This document shows positions 37,209 to 47,813 of a DNA stretch of 64,000 nucleotides, piece after piece (position 1 is the stretch's first letter; each line of letters begins with the position of its first letter). Source of the stretch: Candidatus Saccharimonadales bacterium (GTDB lineage Bacteria > Patescibacteriota > Saccharimonadia > Saccharimonadales > JAXHNE01). The stretch spans positions 56,798 to 120,797 of the forward strand of contig JBFIJL010000001.1 in assembly GCA_041600755.1 (NCBI GenBank), given 5' to 3'. Both the position numbers and the translations under genes were made by a program. The notes under the pieces are model-generated. The model was not told the origin of the DNA and ran no database searches. It saw nothing but the letters and a program-made list of their open reading frames with translations.

Positions 37209-38729
37209 ATGATGAACACCAACGAAAAAATAGGCAATCTTATTTACCAACTACGACAAGAGCGCGGTTTAACTCAAGCAGAGTTTGCGCGCAAGATGGG
37301 CACCAGCCAAAGTGCCATAAACCGCATCGAAAAAGGTAGACAAAATCTCAGCCTAGAAACACTTGGACGAATAAGTGACGTATTACAGAAACCAATAATC
37401 ACTATTTCAGGCCAGTCAATAAACTTTCGGGTTGAAGGTGGACACGAGCTTTCAGGCACCATAGAAACAAAAAGCGCAAAGAATAGCGCAGTTGCTTTGC
37501 TGTGCGCAAGCTTACTAAACAAAGGGACGACAAAGCTTATTAACGTTCCTCGCATTGAGGAAGTAAATCGTATAGTTGAAGTGCTTCAGAGTATTGGAGT
37601 GAGCATAAAATGGTTCAACGGAAACTCTCTCGAGATTAAGCCGCCAGAAACACTGGACCTTAGCAACATTGACGCACAGTCGGCACGACGCACCAGAAGC
37701 GTAATCATGCTTGCAGGACCCCTGCTGCACGAATTCAAAGAATTCAAAATACCATATGCCGGTGGATGCAAGCTCGGCAAACGATCTGTTCAGGCCCACC
37801 TATACGCTCTTGAGGACTTTGGGGTTGAAACAGACGTTGTAGTTGGTCACTACAAAATGACTGTCAAAGACCCCTCGGCTGCCGATGTCGTTCTATACGA
37901 AATGGGTGAAACACCGACTGAGAACATCTTGATGGCTGCGGCTCGCGCAACCGGCACATCAACTATCAAAATGGCGTCGTCAAACTATAACATTCAAGAC
38001 CTTTGTTATTTCCTTAAGAAATTAGGCGTGAAGATTCAGGGCATTGGCACATCAAATCTTACTATTACTGGTGTTCCAGAAATCAGAAAGAATATTTCAT
38101 ACCATGTATGTGAGGACCCGCTCGATTCAATGTTCTTCATATCTGCGGCAGTTGCAACTAATTCGCAAATTACCATTACCAACACACCAACAGATTTTCT
38201 TGAAGTTGAGCTTATGAAGCTCGATAAAATGGGACTTGAAATCAAACGAGAGAACACTCACACCAGCCCCAATGGCTGGACCCACCTTGAGGACATAACA
38301 ATCCACAAGCACGATGGAAAATTAAAAGCTCCTGTAGAAAAATTACATCCTTTGCCTTTCCCAGGATTACTCCCAGACAACTTGCCGTTCTTTGTGCCAA
38401 TAGCAGCTGTAGCCAAAGGCCAGACATTGCTGCACGATTGGATGTACGAAAACCGAGCCATATACTTTACTGAACTCAGTCGACTTGGGGCAAACGTGGA
38501 GCTAATCGATGCACACCGAGTTTACGTCAAAGGCGCCACCAAGTTCTCACCGGCCGACATTACATGCCCACCCGCACTTCGTCCTGCTGCAATCCTACTC
38601 ATCGGCATGCTTGCAGCCGACGGTACAAGCAAGCTACGTAATATCTACTCTATTGCGCGCGGTTATGAAAACATAGCTGAACGCCTCAATAGCATCGGTG
38701 CAAAAGTCGAAGTTCTCAACGAACTTTAA
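37209..38729 (+). CDS. murA: UDP-N-acetylglucosamine 1-carboxyvinyltransferase fused to an N-terminal XRE-type HTH domain
   Basis: Residues ~5-70: LIYQLRQERGLTQAEFARKMGTSQSAINRIEKGRQNLSLETL (HTH_XRE). Remainder is EPT-fold MurA (KSAKNSAVALLCASLL...; total 506 aa vs ~420 for MurA alone). Confidence 0.7.
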   Translation: MMNTNEKIGNLIYQLRQERGLTQAEFARKMGTSQSAINRIEKGRQNLSLETLGRISDVLQKPIITISGQSINFRVEGGHELSGTIETKSAKNSAVALLCASLLNKGTTKLINVPRIEEVNRIVEVLQSIGVSIKWFNGNSLEIKPPETLDLSNIDAQSARRTRSVIMLAGPLLHEFKEFKIPYAGGCKLGKRSVQAHLYALEDFGVETDVVVGHYKMTVKDPSAADVVLYEMGETPTENILMAAARATGTSTIKMASSNYNIQDLCYFLKKLGVKIQGIGTSNLTITGVPEIRKNISYHVCEDPLDSMFFISAAVATNSQITITNTPTDFLEVELMKLDKMGLEIKRENTHTSPNGWTHLEDITIHKHDGKLKAPVEKLHPLPFPGLLPDNLPFFVPIAAVAKGQTLLHDWMYENRAIYFTELSRLGANVELIDAHRVYVKGATKFSPADITCPPALRPAAILLIGMLAADGTSKLRNIYSIARGYENIAERLNSIGAKVEVLNEL

Positions 38730-39079: not shown

Positions 39080-39157
39080 TGGGGCGAATGAGGGGAATCG
39101 AACCCCCGACCTTCTGAACCACAACCAGACGCTCTAACCAACTGAGCTACATCCGCC
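39080..39157 (-). tRNA. tRNA-His (anticodon GTG) with genomically encoded G-1
   Basis: Revcomp G-GCGGATGTAGCTCAGTTGGTTAGAGCGTCTGGTTGTGGTTCAGAAGGTCGGGGGTTCGATTCCCCTCATTCGCCCCA; extra 5' G pairs with discriminator C73; anticodon loop TTGTGGT. Confidence 0.85.
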
Positions 39158-39229
39158 AAGATATACGCGCTGAACTCCGCAATTATAGCCTTTTACCCCA
39201 ATAAAATCAATTATACATATACAAAATTA

Positions 39230-39307
39230 TGGTACCCCGGGAGGGACTCGAACCCCCGACCTAATGGTTAGAACCCACTTGCTCTAATCCAGCTGAGCTA
39301 CCGGGGC
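39230..39307 (-). tRNA. tRNA-Arg (anticodon TCT)
   Basis: Revcomp GCCCCGGTAGCTCAGCTGGATTAGAGCAAGTGGGTTCTAACCATTAGGTCGGGGGTTCGAGTCCCTCCCGGGGTACCA; anticodon loop GTTCTAA. Confidence 0.8.
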
Positions 39308-39314
39308 GTACCTT

Positions 39315-39632
39315 TTAATGTGAAATTTGACGCAAGTGATGCGCAATTACATCTGCTGCAGGTATATAGTCTTTCGACCATTGCTGTGCTATAGAATCAT
39401 CATCCTTGACGATCATCGCTACTGGGAGCGTCTCTGGCATTATGTCATAGAAGTCACGAACCTTTTCACCGTCTGGCGTACGCACATTAAGCACGACTAC
39501 CTGGTGTGGACAATGTTGAGCTATCTCGGATTTGAGCCGCTCAAACTTTCGTGTTTCCATCATCGAGGCATTGCTCAAAACATAAAGTGCAGCGCCTTCA
39601 TTGTCTGAAATGCTAGTGAAATCTAAACCCAT
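39315..39632 (-). CDS. Hypothetical protein (105 aa)
   Basis: No recognised motif; good-length ORF between tRNA genes. Confidence 0.35.
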   Translation of the reverse strand: MGLDFTSISDNEGAALYVLSNASMMETRKFERLKSEIAQHCPHQVVVLNVRTPDGEKVRDFYDIMPETLPVAMIVKDDDSIAQQWSKDYIPAADVIAHHLRQISH

Positions 39633-39653
39633 TAATGCTCCGATTTTATACCT

Positions 39654-39672
39654 TGGTGCGGGTGGAGAGAAT
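39654..39672 (-). repeat. Partial direct copy (19 nt) of the tRNA-Gly 3' end, 55 bp downstream of the gene
   Basis: tggtgcgggtggagagaat is identical to 39728-39746; boundary again in the T-loop; followed by ggtattctc (related to gtatattctgc in the Arg/Glu segments). Confidence 0.75.
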
Positions 39673-39727
39673 ACTTTGGTATTCTCATTCCCTTACAGAA
39701 AATATTCAAGTGAACTTGACTGCTTTC

Positions 39728-39802
39728 TGGTGCGGGTGGAGAGAATCGAACTCTCGTTTCCAGCTTGGAAGGCTAGCATATTAACCACTATAAGACACCC
39801 GC
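39728..39802 (-). tRNA. tRNA-Gly (anticodon TCC)
   Basis: Revcomp GCGGGTGTCTTATAGTGGTTAATATGCTAGCCTTCCAAGCTGGAAACGAGAGTTCGATTCTCTCCACCCGCACCA; anticodon loop CTTCCAA. Confidence 0.75.
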
Positions 39803-41436: not shown

Positions 41437-41985
41437 ATGAACAAATACCAACTCTCCAACAAAGAACTTCCTGCAAGCTTTCGTATTGATAGAGCCAGGG
41501 AGAGTGACTTCTCAGAATTCATGCAAGTATATGAAAAGTCTTTTAGAGATGCATACGAAACTAAAGAAGTTCCAATTAGCCAACTTCATCATAGTCACTT
41601 TATTAAATCTAACATCTCCGAACAGATTCACAATGCATTTTTTGGAGTCAATTCAATTAGTGATTTTGCATATGTCAATGATCGTGTAATCGGTGGTATT
41701 TCTACAACCTGGATTCCTAAAATGCAGGCTGTGGAGCTGCACGGGCTATACATTGACCCTGCCTATCAAAAGCTTGGAGTCGGGACGCAGTTACTGATTC
41801 GTCAATTGAGAATTAATAGCTCCAGACGAATATATCTTGATGTTGCAAAATCATTTAAATTCCAGCAGATCATGTACGAAAACTATGGATTTAAAAAACA
41901 AATCATTGGGGGAAATAAATCATTTTCATGGCCTTCTTGGTCGAGCGAATACAAAATAAAGACTATTAGGATGTGGAAGAAATGA
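41437..41985 (+). CDS. GNAT family N-acetyltransferase
   Basis: Motif A ...LYIDPAYQKLGVGTQLL... Confidence 0.65.
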   Translation: MNKYQLSNKELPASFRIDRARESDFSEFMQVYEKSFRDAYETKEVPISQLHHSHFIKSNISEQIHNAFFGVNSISDFAYVNDRVIGGISTTWIPKMQAVELHGLYIDPAYQKLGVGTQLLIRQLRINSSRRIYLDVAKSFKFQQIMYENYGFKKQIIGGNKSFSWPSWSSEYKIKTIRMWKK

Positions 41986-42737
41986 CCAAGTGGAATTCAG
42001 TTTTTGAAATAAGTGCAGGTCTTGAAGGTCTTGAAAGAATGCCTAATAAACTTGTGGAATCGTCGAGTACGATAAAACTTCCTATAATGCTACTGGTTCT
42101 TGAAAAGATTGATTCAGGAAAGCTGCATTATTGGTCGCGATTCAAAATTTATCAACGACATTTTTCAAGTGGATCAGGCATCTTAAACTGGATGAACAAA
42201 AAATCAATCTCTGTCTTTGAGGCTCTACGCTTAATTGCAAAATATAGTGATTGTGTAGCAACAAACGTCTTAATAGATTACCTGGGTGGAGCAAAACAAA
42301 TTAATAAACAAATGGCTGATCGAGGCTATAAAACAAGATTACATATGGACGTTCTCGATTTCGAAGAAGATGATGAATCGATGCCTCATATTGGCACCAC
42401 TAGTGCGCACGAAATGATGGAATTAATGCAAGATGTATTCGAGCGCACTAAACGCAGAGACAAGCTGGCGGTTCGTTTAATATTCAGAAATATAGACACG
42501 TCTTGGTTTGAACTCGGACTAGGAAAAGATATACCCTCCCTGTACCACAAGACTGGTTCAATGATCGCTGTAGGCCCAACAAAAGATACAGTATTTAACG
42601 TTGTAGGTGTAGTAGACGGTTCTCCAAGAGTTTATTTTGCCTATCTTAGCAGGGGTCATCTAACAGAAACTACAACTGCAAACGAGCAAAAATCGGAACT
42701 TGCGAACGAACTATGGAGCTTGATCGAGCGCTTGTGA
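41973..42737 (+). CDS. Class A beta-lactamase-like serine hydrolase
   Basis: S-x-x-K (SSTIKLPIML) and KTG (YHKTGS) motifs in the correct order/spacing; lacks an obvious signal peptide. Confidence 0.55.
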   Translation: MEEMTKWNSVFEISAGLEGLERMPNKLVESSSTIKLPIMLLVLEKIDSGKLHYWSRFKIYQRHFSSGSGILNWMNKKSISVFEALRLIAKYSDCVATNVLIDYLGGAKQINKQMADRGYKTRLHMDVLDFEEDDESMPHIGTTSAHEMMELMQDVFERTKRRDKLAVRLIFRNIDTSWFELGLGKDIPSLYHKTGSMIAVGPTKDTVFNVVGVVDGSPRVYFAYLSRGHLTETTTANEQKSELANELWSLIERL

Positions 42738-42786: not shown

Positions 42787-42803
42787 TTGGTCGGGGTGAG
42801 AGG
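42787..42803 (-). repeat. Partial direct copy (17 nt) of the tRNA-Pro 3' end (outer copy)
   Basis: ttggtcggggtgagagg is identical to 47667-47683 (the same sequence at the tRNA-Pro 3' end). Confidence 0.7.
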
Positions 42804-42950
42804 GATCGCTAGAGTACTCACACTTCAGCTTCCCTGCGCTCGAGGCCAAGCAAGGAAAACTCAATATGCCACAGGCATATTTCGCCTGTCGGTTCGAGTC
42901 CCTAAACTCAAAGCAAATAAAAATACACAGACATATGCCTGTGTATTTTT
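42804..42950 (-). repeat. Ancestral tRNA-Pro downstream segment, now displaced; its internal ~50 nt are homologous to tmRNA downstream segment 70-184
   Basis: ctcgaggccaagcaaggaaaactcaatatgccacaggcatatttcgcc matches ctcgcaggacaagcaaggaaaactcaaatagccgctggctattttcgcc at 112-160. Palindromic terminator acacagacatatgcctgtgt + T-run abuts the 10-nt tRNA-end copy at 42951-42960. Confidence 0.5.
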
Positions 42951-43252
42951 ATTGGTCGGGTCAGAACGACACTCAGCGAACCTACCTACAAGCCAGCCTT
43001 TATGGGATTTTGCGAAACCATCAACAATTTAGGGATAAGGTCGAGAAGCTACAACGCATTGTCGATAACGCCGTAAAGCCAGAGGGCTTGGAGCTTATCA
43101 AGTTCGTGTAGCGTATAATGTAGATAATATGAGCGACGCCGACGAAACCAAAGAAAACGCAATGCTTCAAGAAAGTGAAGTTGTAGAGTTGCCACCGCAA
43201 CAATCAGCGACCGATACGAGCAACTGGGACAATAAAGTCTTTACTGACCCAA

Positions 43253-44530
43253 GTGGTGAAAAGTATATCCGAACTCTACCTAACGAAGATAGCGAATAGT
43301 CATAACGGGTACAATTTTATGCCAACTATTGACCAGCAGATTGCACAAGAAGAAGCACGAATAAAAAGTACTCTTGGAAACTTCTCTTCAATTATTACCA
43401 ACGCCCAAAAATCTACTAAAGAGAGCCATAATTACAAAATCCTTACAATTCAATTTGATGAGTGTAGGCTTGTTGCCTACGTTCTTGAACACTTGCTGAA
43501 TTGCAAAACAGCTTGGCTTCCTATAGAGAAAGTTCATTGGTGGTCTAGCTTCTCGTACGACGGAGTATACTGTTCAATTGCTCATCAAAAGTTCGGATTT
43601 AATTTGTATATCTCTGGTGGACTAAATAAAAACGATGCTGACAAGTTAGCTAAAAAGTTAATAGCTGAGTTAGAGACAATCGTTGCAACGCTAAGCAAAG
43701 TTACGACGCTCTATGCGAAAAAAGCCGTGAAGGTTGGTAATATCATCCTTCACAATAAGATGCAAAGCCTTGAGGATAGGTACGTATATTATCGTGATGC
43801 TAGCTTTGTTGAGCTTGATACCAAAGCAGAACTTGACAGTATAATGGGCGAAAATGATGGAGAAGTCGTTGAGTTGGGTGTACACGACGAAAAAGACGAC
43901 AAGGACTTAGACAAGAAAGTAGTCGAGACTATGGAGCGTCTTGCTGTATATAGGCGAAAATCGAGTGTTCATCTCTATAATCAGGAGGTTGCAATCATAT
44001 ACTTCTTGAGCTTGGTTGAGCACATATGCCTACTTCTTTATGCGTTTAATCACGATGGAGGCAGTGTAGTTGATTTAGCGATGAAGGGTTGGGGCGAAAA
44101 GTTTGAAAAGGTTATTGGTACTGCGGATAAAGATATTGAAGAGGGGTATCTGTATCTAAGGAAAGTCGCCCTATATAAACGAAACCCTATCACTCACGGC
44201 TTCTTAACTCCTAAGATGACCGAAGCGAGCTTCTACTTTAAGCCAGCACGGCAACGGACGCCAATAAACTTATTTGATGGAGAGCTTTTGGGTGAATATG
44301 GCTACGAGGTAGATTTAGCAAAACTTGACAAGCTACTGGCAGATATAAGGAAAAGTCCGAAGTTTCACAACGCTATGCGCTATATAGGAAATAGTGAGTT
44401 TGATATTAGCTATGATACTGGCAGTATGGCAGAGTTTGAATTAGTGAATAAGATGACCGAAGGCGATTTAGTGGAATACCTCGATGCAGTATCGTGGAGA
44501 TATAATAACGCCGCTAATATGGACTGGTAA
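43253..44530 (+). CDS. Hypothetical island cargo protein (425 aa)
   Basis: Long clean ORF, AT-rich, no recognisable catalytic motif; preceded by ~290 bp non-coding. Confidence 0.5.
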   Translation: MVKSISELYLTKIANSHNGYNFMPTIDQQIAQEEARIKSTLGNFSSIITNAQKSTKESHNYKILTIQFDECRLVAYVLEHLLNCKTAWLPIEKVHWWSSFSYDGVYCSIAHQKFGFNLYISGGLNKNDADKLAKKLIAELETIVATLSKVTTLYAKKAVKVGNIILHNKMQSLEDRYVYYRDASFVELDTKAELDSIMGENDGEVVELGVHDEKDDKDLDKKVVETMERLAVYRRKSSVHLYNQEVAIIYFLSLVEHICLLLYAFNHDGGSVVDLAMKGWGEKFEKVIGTADKDIEEGYLYLRKVALYKRNPITHGFLTPKMTEASFYFKPARQRTPINLFDGELLGEYGYEVDLAKLDKLLADIRKSPKFHNAMRYIGNSEFDISYDTGSMAEFELVNKMTEGDLVEYLDAVSWRYNNAANMDW

Positions 44531-44739: not shown

Positions 44740-45402
44740 TTAGTTCTTGATGAGATGCTTCGTAAATCCGTTTTCCACAAGAACATTAAAGGACTGCCAA
44801 ACACTCTCTGGAATATCCTGTTCAATCTGAAAGCCTAGTGATGGAAAGACTTTAATACGCTGTAAGTCACCAACCATAATGTTTATAAACTGTTCTTTAG
44901 AGCTACTATCGGTTAACATATCGTCATAGCTGAGAGCAGGAGACGTGACGATAACCTCAGTGGAGCTATCTGACCATTGCTTCTTAAATGTTGCATATGC
45001 CCTACGCTCCATATAGGGTTTTGTAACGATAATTAAAGACTTGGGCTGTACGCTTTTACTGTCGAGTAGTTCTTGTGTAAATCGAATATTTTCACCTGTG
45101 TTTGTAGACTTTTCCTCGATAAGGATTTTATCTTCAGACACTCCATTGCCGATAGCAATATCCCTAAATAATTCTGCCTCAGTCGTATTGTTGCTGTGCT
45201 GGGTTATCTTGCCGTAACCACCCGAAAATATAAGCAAATCACTATAACCATCAAGAAAGAGTTGGCTCGCTCGCTCGGCAACCCTGCTTTCTGATGAACC
45301 TAGCCCTAATATTACATCGGCTTTCTCAATCGGCATATTGAGTAGCATATAGTCGAATACGACTTTTGCGTGCTCGTCTACGTTCATTAAATCTCTTTCC
45401 AA
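44740..45402 (-). CDS. DUF218 (YdcF/ElyC-like) domain protein
   Basis: ...VILGLGSSESRVAERASQLFLDGYSDLLIFSGGYG...EKSTNTGENIRFTQELL matches the DUF218 core. Confidence 0.55.
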   Translation of the reverse strand: MERDLMNVDEHAKVVFDYMLLNMPIEKADVILGLGSSESRVAERASQLFLDGYSDLLIFSGGYGKITQHSNNTTEAELFRDIAIGNGVSEDKILIEEKSTNTGENIRFTQELLDSKSVQPKSLIIVTKPYMERRAYATFKKQWSDSSTEVIVTSPALSYDDMLTDSSSKEQFINIMVGDLQRIKVFPSLGFQIEQDIPESVWQSFNVLVENGFTKHLIKN

Positions 45403-45803
45403 AAGCAGGTGTAATCACTGCCCTTAGTAAAGCCCAATTGGTTATATCGACTATCTAAGTCGGCATTTCCTACTGGCGTGTAGACTAGCACTTGAGAGTG
45501 ACCACGACCCCTTAGAACCTCTACGGCTTTATCGTGGAGAGCTTTGGTTACGTCTCCGTTTGCTAGATGTACAGCAAAACGAAATAGCCAAGCAACACGA
45601 CCATCGTCGACAAGAGATACAGTGCCCACAATCTTTTCGTCTTCAACAGCAACAAGGATTGCATCGGTGTCTACTTCAATCTTTTTTCTAAGTCTGTCGC
45701 TAGCGTCACGCGCTTCGTCGAACTGACCACCAAGCGTATCGCTATCTAAGTAGAGAGCTTTGAGTTGCTCGTAATCAGATGGCTCGTAACTCCTTATAAT
45801 CAT
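45387..45803 (-). CDS. GNAT family acetyltransferase
   Basis: 138 aa, ...ILVAVEDEKIVGTVSLV...RGRGHSQVL... acetyl-CoA-binding-like motif; 16-nt overlap with the DUF218 gene. Confidence 0.5.
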   Translation of the reverse strand: MIIRSYEPSDYEQLKALYLDSDTLGGQFDEARDASDRLRKKIEVDTDAILVAVEDEKIVGTVSLVDDGRVAWLFRFAVHLANGDVTKALHDKAVEVLRGRGHSQVLVYTPVGNADLDSRYNQLGFTKGSDYTCFWKEI

Positions 45804-45850: not shown

Positions 45851-47679
45851 ATGATGGACAGTATGGCTACAGGAGATAAGAAAACCAGAACACGCAAGAA
45901 GCAAGTGCTTGTACCGCTTAGTGATAAGCAGTTGAAGCAAGCCGAGAGTGTAGTAGCCGAAAGCCTAAAAGATAACCCTGAACTGTTCAACCTGCCAGAG
46001 AGTAGATACACGGTTGAGGGTCTCGTAGACTTCTACGTGCAGTCGATAGCGGGTAGCAGAAAGATACTACCTAAAGAGAAACGACGCTATGTAGTCTACT
46101 TACGTAAATCCACTGATGACGAACGTAAACAAGTGAGGTCGATTGACGACCAGAGAAAAGAGTGCCTAGATTTAGCCAAGAGGCTTGATATTAAAGTACG
46201 ACCTGAGGATATTTTCGAGGAAAGACAGTCGGCAAAAATCTCTGGCAAACGTGACATATTCAATGACATTATGGAGGGTTTTGAGAGAGGTAAATATCAC
46301 GGTTAAATCTCGTGGTCACCTGACCGATTGTCACGCAATATGTTAGGGGTGGCCAGATTATCGAGCACGTAGATTACGAGAAGATACAGGATTTACTATT
46401 CTGCACTTACGCTTTCGACAACACACTAAACGGCAAAATGATGCTTGGTATTTTGTTTGCTACGTCAAAGCAATATAGCGACAAACTAGCGGTTGATGTG
46501 GCTCGTGGCATTACAGGTGCTATCCACGAGGGCAAGTATGTTGGTCTAGTCAAAAAGGGCTACTATGCTGACACTGACAATGGACGGTTTATGCCAGACG
46601 GCGTACATTGGCAGTTATTACGCCAAGCCGTTGTTATGCGACTAAAAGACCGCAAGACCAATCAAGAGATAGCAGACTTCTTAAACGCCTCAAACTTTAG
46701 CTTTCGCAAAAGCCAAGATGACCCCTACAAAAAAGCAAAAATGGACAAAAAGACAGTTGCAACAATGTTTGCCGACCCCTTTTACACGGGTGCTTACAAG
46801 TATGGCGATAACATAGCCAACCTAAAAGACACCTATAACTTTTTGCCCCTGATGACACCCGACGAGTTTATAGCGTTAAGCAAGAATATGTCGGATAGTT
46901 TCAATAAAGAGTTTGTTGGTCGCAGTAACGTTGCTAAACGGCTAGATTTCGGATTGCTTCGAGAAAAGGTTATTTGCGACTATTGCGATAAACCGATGGG
47001 CTTCCAGAGGACAAAGATACCAAGAGGCAAAAACCAAGGTCGCTATATGATAAGTTTCTATTGCCGAGATAATGGTCAGGGCTGTCTACGTCATAATAAC
47101 GAAGAAGCTATAAAACAGTACGGAAAGAAGCTCAGCAAGAGTGTTAGGCTCAAAGATATAACGCCACACATCGCTTGGACGATACAGAACTGCACTAAAG
47201 ACAGCAAGAAAGCCTACGACTACTACATTGAACGTCTGAAAAGTGAGGTTGCCGTTAAACGTGAGACTGCTAAACGCAAGCTGGCTGATGCTAAAAAAGA
47301 AGTTGCTAAGCAAGAAGAGATGCTAGCCCAGTATCAGAACTTTCAAGTAAAGCACCCTGAAGATTATCAGAAGTACCACAAGAATAAGCTAGAGGAGCAT
47401 CAACAACTCCTTGATGTACATAGTGTAAGTGTCTCTAAACTAGAGAAAGAACTCGAAAAACTCAAACAAGATTTACCAACCCGCAAAGAGTTTGCTGAAC
47501 TCGTCCAATCGTATCTGTTAATACTACGTACAACCCGTGATTTGGTGGAAGAGGACGAAGTGTACAAAGAGATGGTGTTGAACCTGCGTGTTAGGGACGA
47601 CTCCGCCCCTGTTATAAAGCTAAATCCACCATACGATATGATGGTGGATTTTAGCGAAAATACTTCTTGGTCGGGGTGA
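45851..47679 (+). pseudogene. Large serine recombinase (integrase) disrupted by an in-frame TAA (46304-46306) and a frameshift (~46335-46365)
   Basis: N-terminal YVVYLRKSTDDERKQVRSIDDQ (catalytic Ser region); after the TAA the same frame continues ISWSPDRLSRN (resolvase DRLxR motif). A different frame then reads GGQIIEHVDYEKIQD...MMLGILFATSKQYSDKLAVDVARG, followed by the recombinase domain and Cys zinc ribbon (CDYCDKPMG...FYCRDNGQGC) and a coiled coil. Last codons TSWSG* are encoded by the tRNA-Pro 3' end. Confidence 0.6.
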
Positions 47680-47742
47680 GAGGACTCGAACCTCCGACCT
47701 CACGGTCCCAAACCGCGCGCGCTAGCCAACTGCGCCACACCC
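47668..47742 (-). tRNA. tRNA-Pro (anticodon TGG)
   Basis: Revcomp CGGGGTGTGGCGCAGTTGGCTAGCGCGCGCGGTTTGGGACCGTGAGGTCGGAGGTTCGAGTCCTCTCACCCCGACCA; anticodon loop TTTGGGA. Confidence 0.85.
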
Positions 47743-47813
47743 CGTTAGTCTAGTGGCTTTTGCCACTAGAAAACTTACAGTATTATAACAGAAATTATTG
47801 TACTGACCAGTGT

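Follow-up and report, generated by a model that had tools for sequence, protein, structure and literature searches.

A tRNA-Pro island gene of a Saccharibacteria genome represents an unnamed protein family with a probable HEPN-type C-terminal region

The gene studied here occupies positions 43253-44530 on the forward strand of a 64,000-nucleotide stretch of contig JBFIJL010000001.1 from a Candidatus Saccharimonadales bacterium. This whole stretch is referred to as the window, and within it the gene is carried by a small island inserted at a tRNA-Pro gene. We propose that the gene product is a new HEPN-type ribonuclease (RNase) effector of a conflict or defence system, serving in abortive infection or addiction, and assign a probability of roughly 0.6 to this reading. 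The protein belongs to a real, unnamed family that is horizontally scattered and patchily distributed across phyla. A first-pass annotation, made from the letters of the DNA alone, had described it as island cargo of unknown function and a candidate defence gene. The lack of an assigned function was borne out by every library tested, as the window protein found no model at E ≤ 0.1 in Pfam, PADLOC, PHROGs or NCBIfam and matched no PADLOC-DB v2 system, PHROGs family or NCBIfam entry. The further statement that it has no recognisable catalytic motif is wrong, and the idea that nothing in its sequence points to a mechanism is not supported: the protein has an R310-N311-x3-H315-G316 motif of the HEPN type, which is near-invariant in the family.

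In the HEPN superfamily, the fold is a four-helix up-down bundle, and the characteristic Rx4-6H motif is located at the end of helix-3, running into the following loop (Anantharaman et al. 2013, PMC3710099). The arginine of the motif is followed by a polar residue, usually N, D or H, while helix-2 carries a conserved acidic residue, often within Ex3[KR], and an insert is found between helices 2 and 3 (PMC3710099). In the published layout of Csx1-type HEPN domains, a beta-hairpin comes after the motif. In the following, residues are numbered according to the 425-amino-acid (aa) open reading frame (ORF), in which M23 is the likely true start; conservation was read from an alignment of 115 sequences, and motif tallies were taken from 156 members. 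K93, K113, G115, E256, H315 and G316 are invariant, and a conservation of at least 90% holds for E92, W96, G162, N168, Y177, S253, H257, W280, K283, L302, R310 and N311 and for the C-terminal N-M-D. RNxxxHG is found in 150 of the 156 members. Both the spacing of R310-N311-x3-H315 and its polar second residue thus agree with the superfamily description.

The structural context of these residues was obtained from an AlphaFold2 (AF2) model. With an alignment of nine sequences the predicted local distance difference test score (pLDDT) was 76, and with 115 sequences it reached 91.9, with a predicted template modelling score of 0.85. The modelled N-terminal domain comprises short helices followed by a beta-meander (residues 86-121) and carries the motifs E92-K93..W96 and H111-x-K113-F-G115. 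It is followed by a long helix (126-161), a second long helix (213-263), which bears E256-H257 close to its end, then short helices (272-287) and the motif helix 293-314. This last helix ends in R310-N311, while H315-G316 are placed in the next loop, which is the position expected of a HEPN motif. The invariant E256 lies in the long helix that precedes the motif helix, although its context is not Ex3[KR]. After the motif, the model shows the hairpin, four further helices and finally the NMDW tail. The extreme C-terminus reads N-M-[DE]-[WYF]-COOH in 134 of the 156 members. Such a near-universal tetrapeptide at the very end of the chain is unusual and suggests that the tail serves as a plug or docking motif or that the C-terminal carboxylate has a role.

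Profile searches with other members of the family pointed in the same direction. When the 115 members were scanned singly against Pfam, Csx1_HEPN was the most frequent family, and HEPN_MAE_28990 and Cas_Csm6_HEPN also appeared. Consensus sequences of the C-terminal half matched HEPN_Swt1 (E 0.012), HEPN_RiboL-PSP (0.024), Csx1_HEPN (0.023-0.09) and Cas_Csm6_HEPN (0.011), and these matches always span the motif. Among 13 matches of C-terminal fragments to PADLOC, 12 were to CARF-HEPN, Csx1 or Csm6 models. Each of these 12 alignments falls in the C-terminal (HEPN) part of the model and either covers the motif or directly abuts it. The best match of a consensus fragment (E 1.7e-4) extends over 128 residues and spans both the motif and the helix with E256-H257 (the LEH motif), and the best match of a single member reached 2.3e-5, or about 3e-3 after correction for the 115 proteins scanned. 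The N-terminal half gave no HEPN match in Pfam or PADLOC. Because the motif, the E256 helix, the insert and the hairpin are laid out in the model as in the published description, and because HEPN profiles recur, the C-terminal region is quite probably homologous to HEPN domains. We further infer that, in structural type, this HEPN domain would be Csx1/Csm6-like.

Several observations weigh against this assignment. No HEPN model was reached at its curated threshold; the Pfam HEPN matches have E values of 0.006-0.09 and all lie below the gathering score. Neither the window protein nor the consensus of its own subclade matched a HEPN model directly, so the link runs through homology within the family, and the Ex3[KR] motif is absent from the protein. 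The structure prediction and Foldseek search suggested by the first-pass annotation gave a confident model and, from that model, nothing below E 0.1 in the Protein Data Bank (PDB) or BFVD, with only weak RnlA matches recurring. HEPN domains form short, divergent bundles of helices that frequently escape Foldseek queries made with a whole chain. These results leave room for a different explanation, in which RNx3HG and the glutamate are part of an active or ligand-binding site other than that of HEPN, within a new fold, and the protein is another hydrolase or a regulator rather than an RNase. The missing structural neighbour despite a pLDDT of 92, the uniformly sub-threshold HEPN matches, and the invariant K93 and K113 and the NMDW tail, which have no counterpart in described HEPN families, would all fit this explanation. 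On the other hand, hardly any matches recur apart from those to independent HEPN models of two libraries, which cover or abut the motif, and the predicted secondary-structure layout agrees point by point with the HEPN/Csx1 description. We therefore consider a non-HEPN site unlikely.

A word-indexed search of 5.8 billion proteins returned eight close homologues, and a second one with the 115-sequence profile only nine proteins, while a profile search that covered all 1.84 billion cluster representatives yielded 926 at E ≤ 1e-3, of which 331 had E ≤ 1e-30; almost all are 370-400 aa in length. Genome matches came from Eubacteriaceae, Paceibacterota, Gordonia, Streptomyces, Shewanella, Hyphomicrobiales, Lysobacterales, Acetobacteraceae and an unclassified gammaproteobacterial metagenome-assembled genome (MAG). 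Six plasmids carry family members, and the plasmid homologues are labelled 'hypothetical protein' in RefSeq. Searches of PDB sequences with the 9- and 115-sequence profiles and with a C-terminal consensus fragment yielded chance matches or nothing. A phage origin was considered and rejected, as no match was found in 50,697 phage genomes or, with motif patterns, in IMG/VR. Domain fusions were likewise discarded, since the longer family members contain no recognisable extra domains. A literature search on the C-terminal motif, or on HEPN together with a serine recombinase, found nothing relevant.

The ORF opens with GTG and runs uninterrupted for 425 codons (43253-44530, forward strand), as first annotated. 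However, the true start is most likely the ATG at 43319, giving a protein of 403 aa. This was deduced from comparison with the orthologue on the metagenomic contig L009, which shares 93% aa and 91.5% nucleotide identity with the window gene. From codon 23 onward, the nonsynonymous and synonymous substitution rates (dN and dS) are 0.028 and 0.367 (dN/dS 0.076), and the 98 differences are distributed over codon positions 1/2/3 as 20/10/68. The first 22 codons behave as non-coding DNA, with dN/dS of about 1.0 and position differences of 2/6/2, and the more distant homologues P0002-P0006 start at a methionine aligned with M23; the start was therefore placed at 43319. The pLDDT of residues 1-20 is about 50. 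The 403-aa gene is coding and under strong purifying selection, although the recombinase of its island is dead. The reported AT-richness is real and modest: the GC content of the gene is 40.1% against a window mean of 44.7%, in the 3rd percentile of equal-sized windows. A scan for promoters and terminators near the gene gave nothing above chance.

The tRNA-Pro island itself is supported. A 17-nucleotide (nt) direct repeat, TTGGTCGGGGTGAGAGG, is present in two exact copies in the window, the second being the 3' end of tRNA-Pro, and together they delimit an element of 4.9 kb. A recombinase gene beside the tRNA gene and a copy of the tRNA 3' end at the far boundary are the features of a tRNA-integrated serine-recombinase island, and the window shows both. 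The element contains, in order, a small ORF, the target gene, DUF218 and GNAT genes on the opposite strand and a large serine recombinase. Relative to the intact 604-aa orthologue of L009, the recombinase is interrupted by an in-frame stop codon (46304-46306) and by a frameshift near 46342-46345, and a tblastn search with that orthologue matched the window in two frames (82% and 71% identity). The recombinase is thus a pseudogene and the island is immobilised. The target gene had been called the largest intact gene on the island, which is true only because the recombinase of the 604-aa type is broken. The related L009 element also abuts the 3' end of tRNA-Pro and has the same layout, except that the DUF218/GNAT segment is swapped for an unrelated 238-aa gene; the conserved core of this element family therefore comprises the recombinase as well as the target gene and the small ORF.

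Homologue P0003 (52% identity; loci L001-L004) provides a second, independent case in which the family is paired with tRNA-targeting serine-recombinase elements; it starts 16 bp after the stop codon of a large serine recombinase. P0003 is the last gene before a tRNA-Asn and follows a 425-aa serine recombinase (L001 8708-11460; L002 8288-11040), in a larger element that also carries terminase, ParB-methylase and type I restriction-modification genes. With the family gene next to a large serine recombinase in three contexts (window, L009 and L001-L004), one might suppose that the recombinase uses the protein as an accessory factor, for instance as a recombination directionality factor or integration helper. 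Nevertheless, a Resolvase domain occurs in only one of 95 neighbouring ORFs from ten other genomes, no serine recombinase is present at L005, L006, L007, L008, L020, L022 or L023, and the two recombinases concerned share only 26% identity. Since most members lack a nearby recombinase, and since the window gene has remained under purifying selection after the death of its own, an accessory function appears highly improbable.

The neighbourhoods of homologues, whose inspection the first-pass annotation had proposed, indeed contain numerous genes of defence and mobile elements. P0006 adjoins AbiV-HEPN and AbiJ_NTD3 genes, and P0139 lies among AbiV-HEPN, Schlafen-AlbA, KAP NTPase, PIN and Ymh genes. 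P0004 is situated in a variable region with a patatin and an MmeI-type enzyme, P0008 in a region resembling PRTRC/integrative and conjugative elements with a Cap4 nuclease and UvrD, and P0007 beside IS110 and IS3 transposases. In Shewanella, an ApeA gene is found immediately upstream of the family member; in Gordonia and the gammaproteobacterial MAG, the neighbours are HEPN_LA2681 proteins, and in a Hyphomicrobiales MAG, a terminase. The 95 neighbouring ORFs from ten genomes also include matches to type II/IIG restriction-modification, Mrr, ArdA, nSTAND3 and PDC-S73, and the family members on conjugative plasmids adjoin Phd/PemK modules. In a Eubacteriaceae MAG (L010 351-2864), the family gene precedes by 7 bp a reverse transcriptase of the UG13b group (PADLOC E 5e-138), which has been predicted to be defensive (Mestre et al.). 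This pair, seen at one locus only, may be a two-gene system of reverse transcriptase and HEPN-like protein.

The proposal that the gene is defence cargo is therefore upheld as far as it is cargo of a tRNA-Pro element whose homologues lie overwhelmingly in neighbourhoods of mobile or defence type, while the support for defence itself is circumstantial. Two points weigh against reading more into the association: unremarkable loci exist, such as one among metabolic genes in Psychrobacter and L005, and the association is qualitatively strong and not quantified against background.

The gene had also been described as isolated and as having its own upstream non-coding region, which is incorrect, as a conserved coding ORF of 56 aa ends 19 nt before the ATG. 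Compared with L009, the differences in this ORF fall on codon positions as 8/5/26, with 19 synonymous and 11 nonsynonymous codon changes; given this concentration at third and synonymous positions, the ORF is a real coding gene. The L009 copy encodes 53 aa. In L026, a copy with 61% identity over 49 residues (E 2e-17) is located 8 nt upstream of the P0002 homologue, so that an acidic ORF of 53-64 aa, under purifying selection, precedes the family gene by 8-19 nt in three loci (window, L009 and L026). This small acidic protein is the likeliest candidate for a neutraliser or regulator in the Saccharibacteria subclade.

Its presence raises the question of whether this small protein is the antitoxin and the HEPN-like protein the toxin of an addiction pair that mainly stabilises the element or plasmid rather than acting against phages. 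The tight spacing of the two genes in the three loci would suit such a pair, as would the survival of the target gene intact on an island with a dead recombinase and the positions of other members, both on conjugative plasmids by Phd/PemK and at the tRNA-proximal ends of serine-recombinase elements. However, only the closest subclade (at least 61% identity) has the small ORF, and the roughly 20 other, more distant loci have no conserved upstream partner or other conserved neighbour; the lack of a family-wide partner also counts against the effector reading. Many homologues are, moreover, embedded in clusters of bona fide defence genes. A pure addiction pair is therefore rather unlikely, and addiction and abortive infection are not mutually exclusive. 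For the effector as such, the defence role is circumstantial, and the evidence would fit an addiction (toxin-antitoxin) role equally well.

Combined, these results suggest the following working mechanism for a HEPN-type effector. The protein of about 403 aa is built of two modules and comprises an N-terminal alpha/beta domain, a long helical stalk and a C-terminal helical region that carries the HEPN-type motif. By analogy with characterised HEPN enzymes, the C-terminal domain may be a metal-independent endoribonuclease using R310, N311, H315 and E256, and, as for other HEPN RNases, a dimer is probably the active form, staying inactive until a signal arrives. The N-terminal domain is the likely sensor or autoinhibitor, and in the Saccharibacteria subclade the small acidic protein may additionally hold the HEPN-like protein inactive. 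Phage infection, loss of the element or a comparable trigger would then lead to cleavage of cellular or invader RNA and to growth arrest. The protein would act either as a defence effector of the abortive-infection type or, equally, as an addiction toxin stabilising its element.

A more specific and only tentative version, which we hold to be possible but doubtful, is an undescribed single-protein anti-phage or abortive-infection system that combines a Csx1-like HEPN RNase with a new beta-meander sensor and an NMDW plug or docking tail. It would have spread horizontally through at least Saccharibacteria, Paceibacterota, Firmicutes, Actinobacteria and Proteobacteria, and in Saccharibacteria would be associated with a small acidic antitoxin and with miniature tRNA-targeting serine-recombinase elements. 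If the effector reading is true, about 900 sequence clusters that are now 'hypothetical protein' gain a testable mechanism, HEPN RNase activity, and a new sensor-effector architecture is added to the single-gene defence and toxin modules. It would also mean that a conflict-system gene is kept under selection in the very small genomes of episymbiotic Saccharibacteria. The NMDW tail and the invariant N-terminal lysines are concrete mutagenesis targets for the activation mechanism.

Table 1. Features of the target gene and of the tRNA-Pro island (positions of the window).
Feature	Coordinates	Strand	Basis or remark
Likely true coding sequence of the HEPN-like protein	43319..44530	+	403 aa plus stop; dN/dS, homologue starts, AF2 pLDDT 91.9
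5' extension of the listed ORF (GTG start), probably untranslated	43253..43318	+	dN/dS ~1.03; overlaps the 3' end of the small ORF
N-terminal alpha/beta domain (~residues 45-122), four-stranded antiparallel beta-meander	43385..43618	+	AF2 secondary structure
E256-H257 (LEH motif), candidate HEPN acidic residue	44018..44023	+	E256 invariant, H257 ≥90%
R310-N311-P-I-T-H315-G316, Rx4H motif of HEPN type	44180..44200	+	Sequence; end of helix 293-314
Beta-hairpin, residues 324-339, directly after the motif	44222..44269	+	AF2 model
C-terminal N-M-D-W, directly before the stop	44516..44527	+	pLDDT ~96 for the last block
Acidic 56-aa ORF, candidate antitoxin or regulator	43129..43299	+	Ends 19 nt before ATG 43319
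Left copy of the 17-nt direct repeat (displaced tRNA-Pro 3' end)	42787..42803	.	Exact match
Conserved reading frame WSGQNDTQRTY...KFV*	42953..43111	+	Opens at the second TGGTCGGG; frame kept in L009
Variable cargo: DUF218 gene 44740-45402, GNAT gene 45387-45803	44740..45803	-	Pfam
Large serine recombinase pseudogene	45863..47679	+	Pfam Resolvase, Recombinase, Zn_ribbon_recom
Right copy of the 17-nt direct repeat, within tRNA-Pro	47667..47683	.	Exact match
tRNA-Pro(tgg), integration target	47668..47744	-	ARAGORN; Rfam tRNA 63 bits

The left part of the island contains a further conserved reading frame. Homology between the window and L009 starts exactly at 42953 (L009 1-210 and 4360-4399 compared), where this frame opens. 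At 47655-47679, the recombinase ORF ends ...ENTSWSG* on the same TGGTCGGGG, with the tRNA-Pro 3' end (TGGTCGGGGTGA) providing its stop codon. The frame is possibly an alternative C-terminal tail of the recombinase, of about 50 aa, in the excised circle, a join that we infer. If the element circularises, the recombinase would read into this tail of about 50 aa, so that integration would switch its C-terminus and attP would lie inside the recombinase gene.

Between the left repeat and the start of the L009 homology, a stretch of 150 nt (42804-42952) contains a T-arm-like GGTTCGAGTCCC at about 42891-42902 and a hairpin with a T-run at about 42918-42950. ARAGORN and Rfam made no call within it, and it may be a remnant of an earlier integration or of a tRNA-like sequence. 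Just outside the repeat-bounded island, 41437-42737 holds a GNAT gene together with a gene whose 254-aa product resembles class-A beta-lactamases (Beta-lactamase2, E 1e-28). Their GC content of 37-39.5% is the lowest of the region, and they may be an older acquired segment. A Beta-lactamase2 gene is also found near the P0003 element. Three tRNA genes (His, Arg-tct and Gly) are clustered at 39080-39802, some 3 kb upstream of the island. At 37209-38729, a MurA (EPSP_synthase fold) is fused to an N-terminal helix-turn-helix (HTH) domain of the XRE type; this fusion is 85% and 77% identical to proteins from Candidatus Saccharibacteria MAGs and is common to all 120 Saccharibacteria-type homologues among the matches listed.

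In comparison with known systems, the family most resembles the HEPN domains of Csx1 and Csm6, the ancillary RNases of type III CRISPR systems (PF09455, PF09659; PADLOC). Both share R-N-x3-H at a helix end with a beta-hairpin directly behind it, an insert ahead of the motif helix and an acidic residue conserved further upstream, and Csx1/Csm6 models are the best and most recurrent profile matches of the family, none of them at the curated cut-off. Unlike Csx1 and Csm6, the family has no CARF match and no CRISPR association; its N-terminal domain is an antiparallel beta-meander rather than Rossmann-like, and about 110 residues, ending in NMDW, follow the motif.

ApeA (ApeA_NTD1 plus HEPN_Apea) is likewise a single polypeptide (about 400-450 aa) in which a non-catalytic N-terminal domain precedes a C-terminal RNxxxH domain of the HEPN type, and it also occurs in defence islands. 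However, neither the window protein nor the 115 members matched ApeA_NTD1 or HEPN_Apea in Pfam. Kinship with ApeA was rejected when hhalign against the ApeA neighbour in Shewanella aligned only the 20-residue motif (P = 0.12), and a comparison with a neighbouring HEPN_LA2681 protein found nothing. These hhalign comparisons, and the one with RnlA, used single sequences and are uninformative.

The RnlA/LsoA toxins (RNase LS) combine one or more N-terminal alpha/beta domains with a C-terminal HEPN domain, reside on mobile elements and have a small protein that neutralises them, much as the subclade here has a small candidate partner. In contrast to RnlA, no RnlB-like antitoxin lies downstream, the candidate partner being upstream, and the only RnlB_antitoxin signal was a sub-threshold match of 21 residues in the DUF218 gene. 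RnlA chains are among the weak Foldseek matches (E 0.4-2.4, template modelling score 0.14-0.18), and kinship at the sequence level was rejected after hhalign against E. coli RnlA (P = 0.41).

Finally, AbiV, AbiJ, AbiU2 and AbiD/F, the HEPN abortive-infection proteins of the lactococcal type, differ from the family in their N-terminal domain and C-terminal tail, and no profile match to their Pfam families was obtained. Nevertheless, they share the mode of action proposed here, that of standalone HEPN RNase effectors carried on mobile DNA and acting in abortive infection, and AbiV and AbiJ genes are neighbours of family members.

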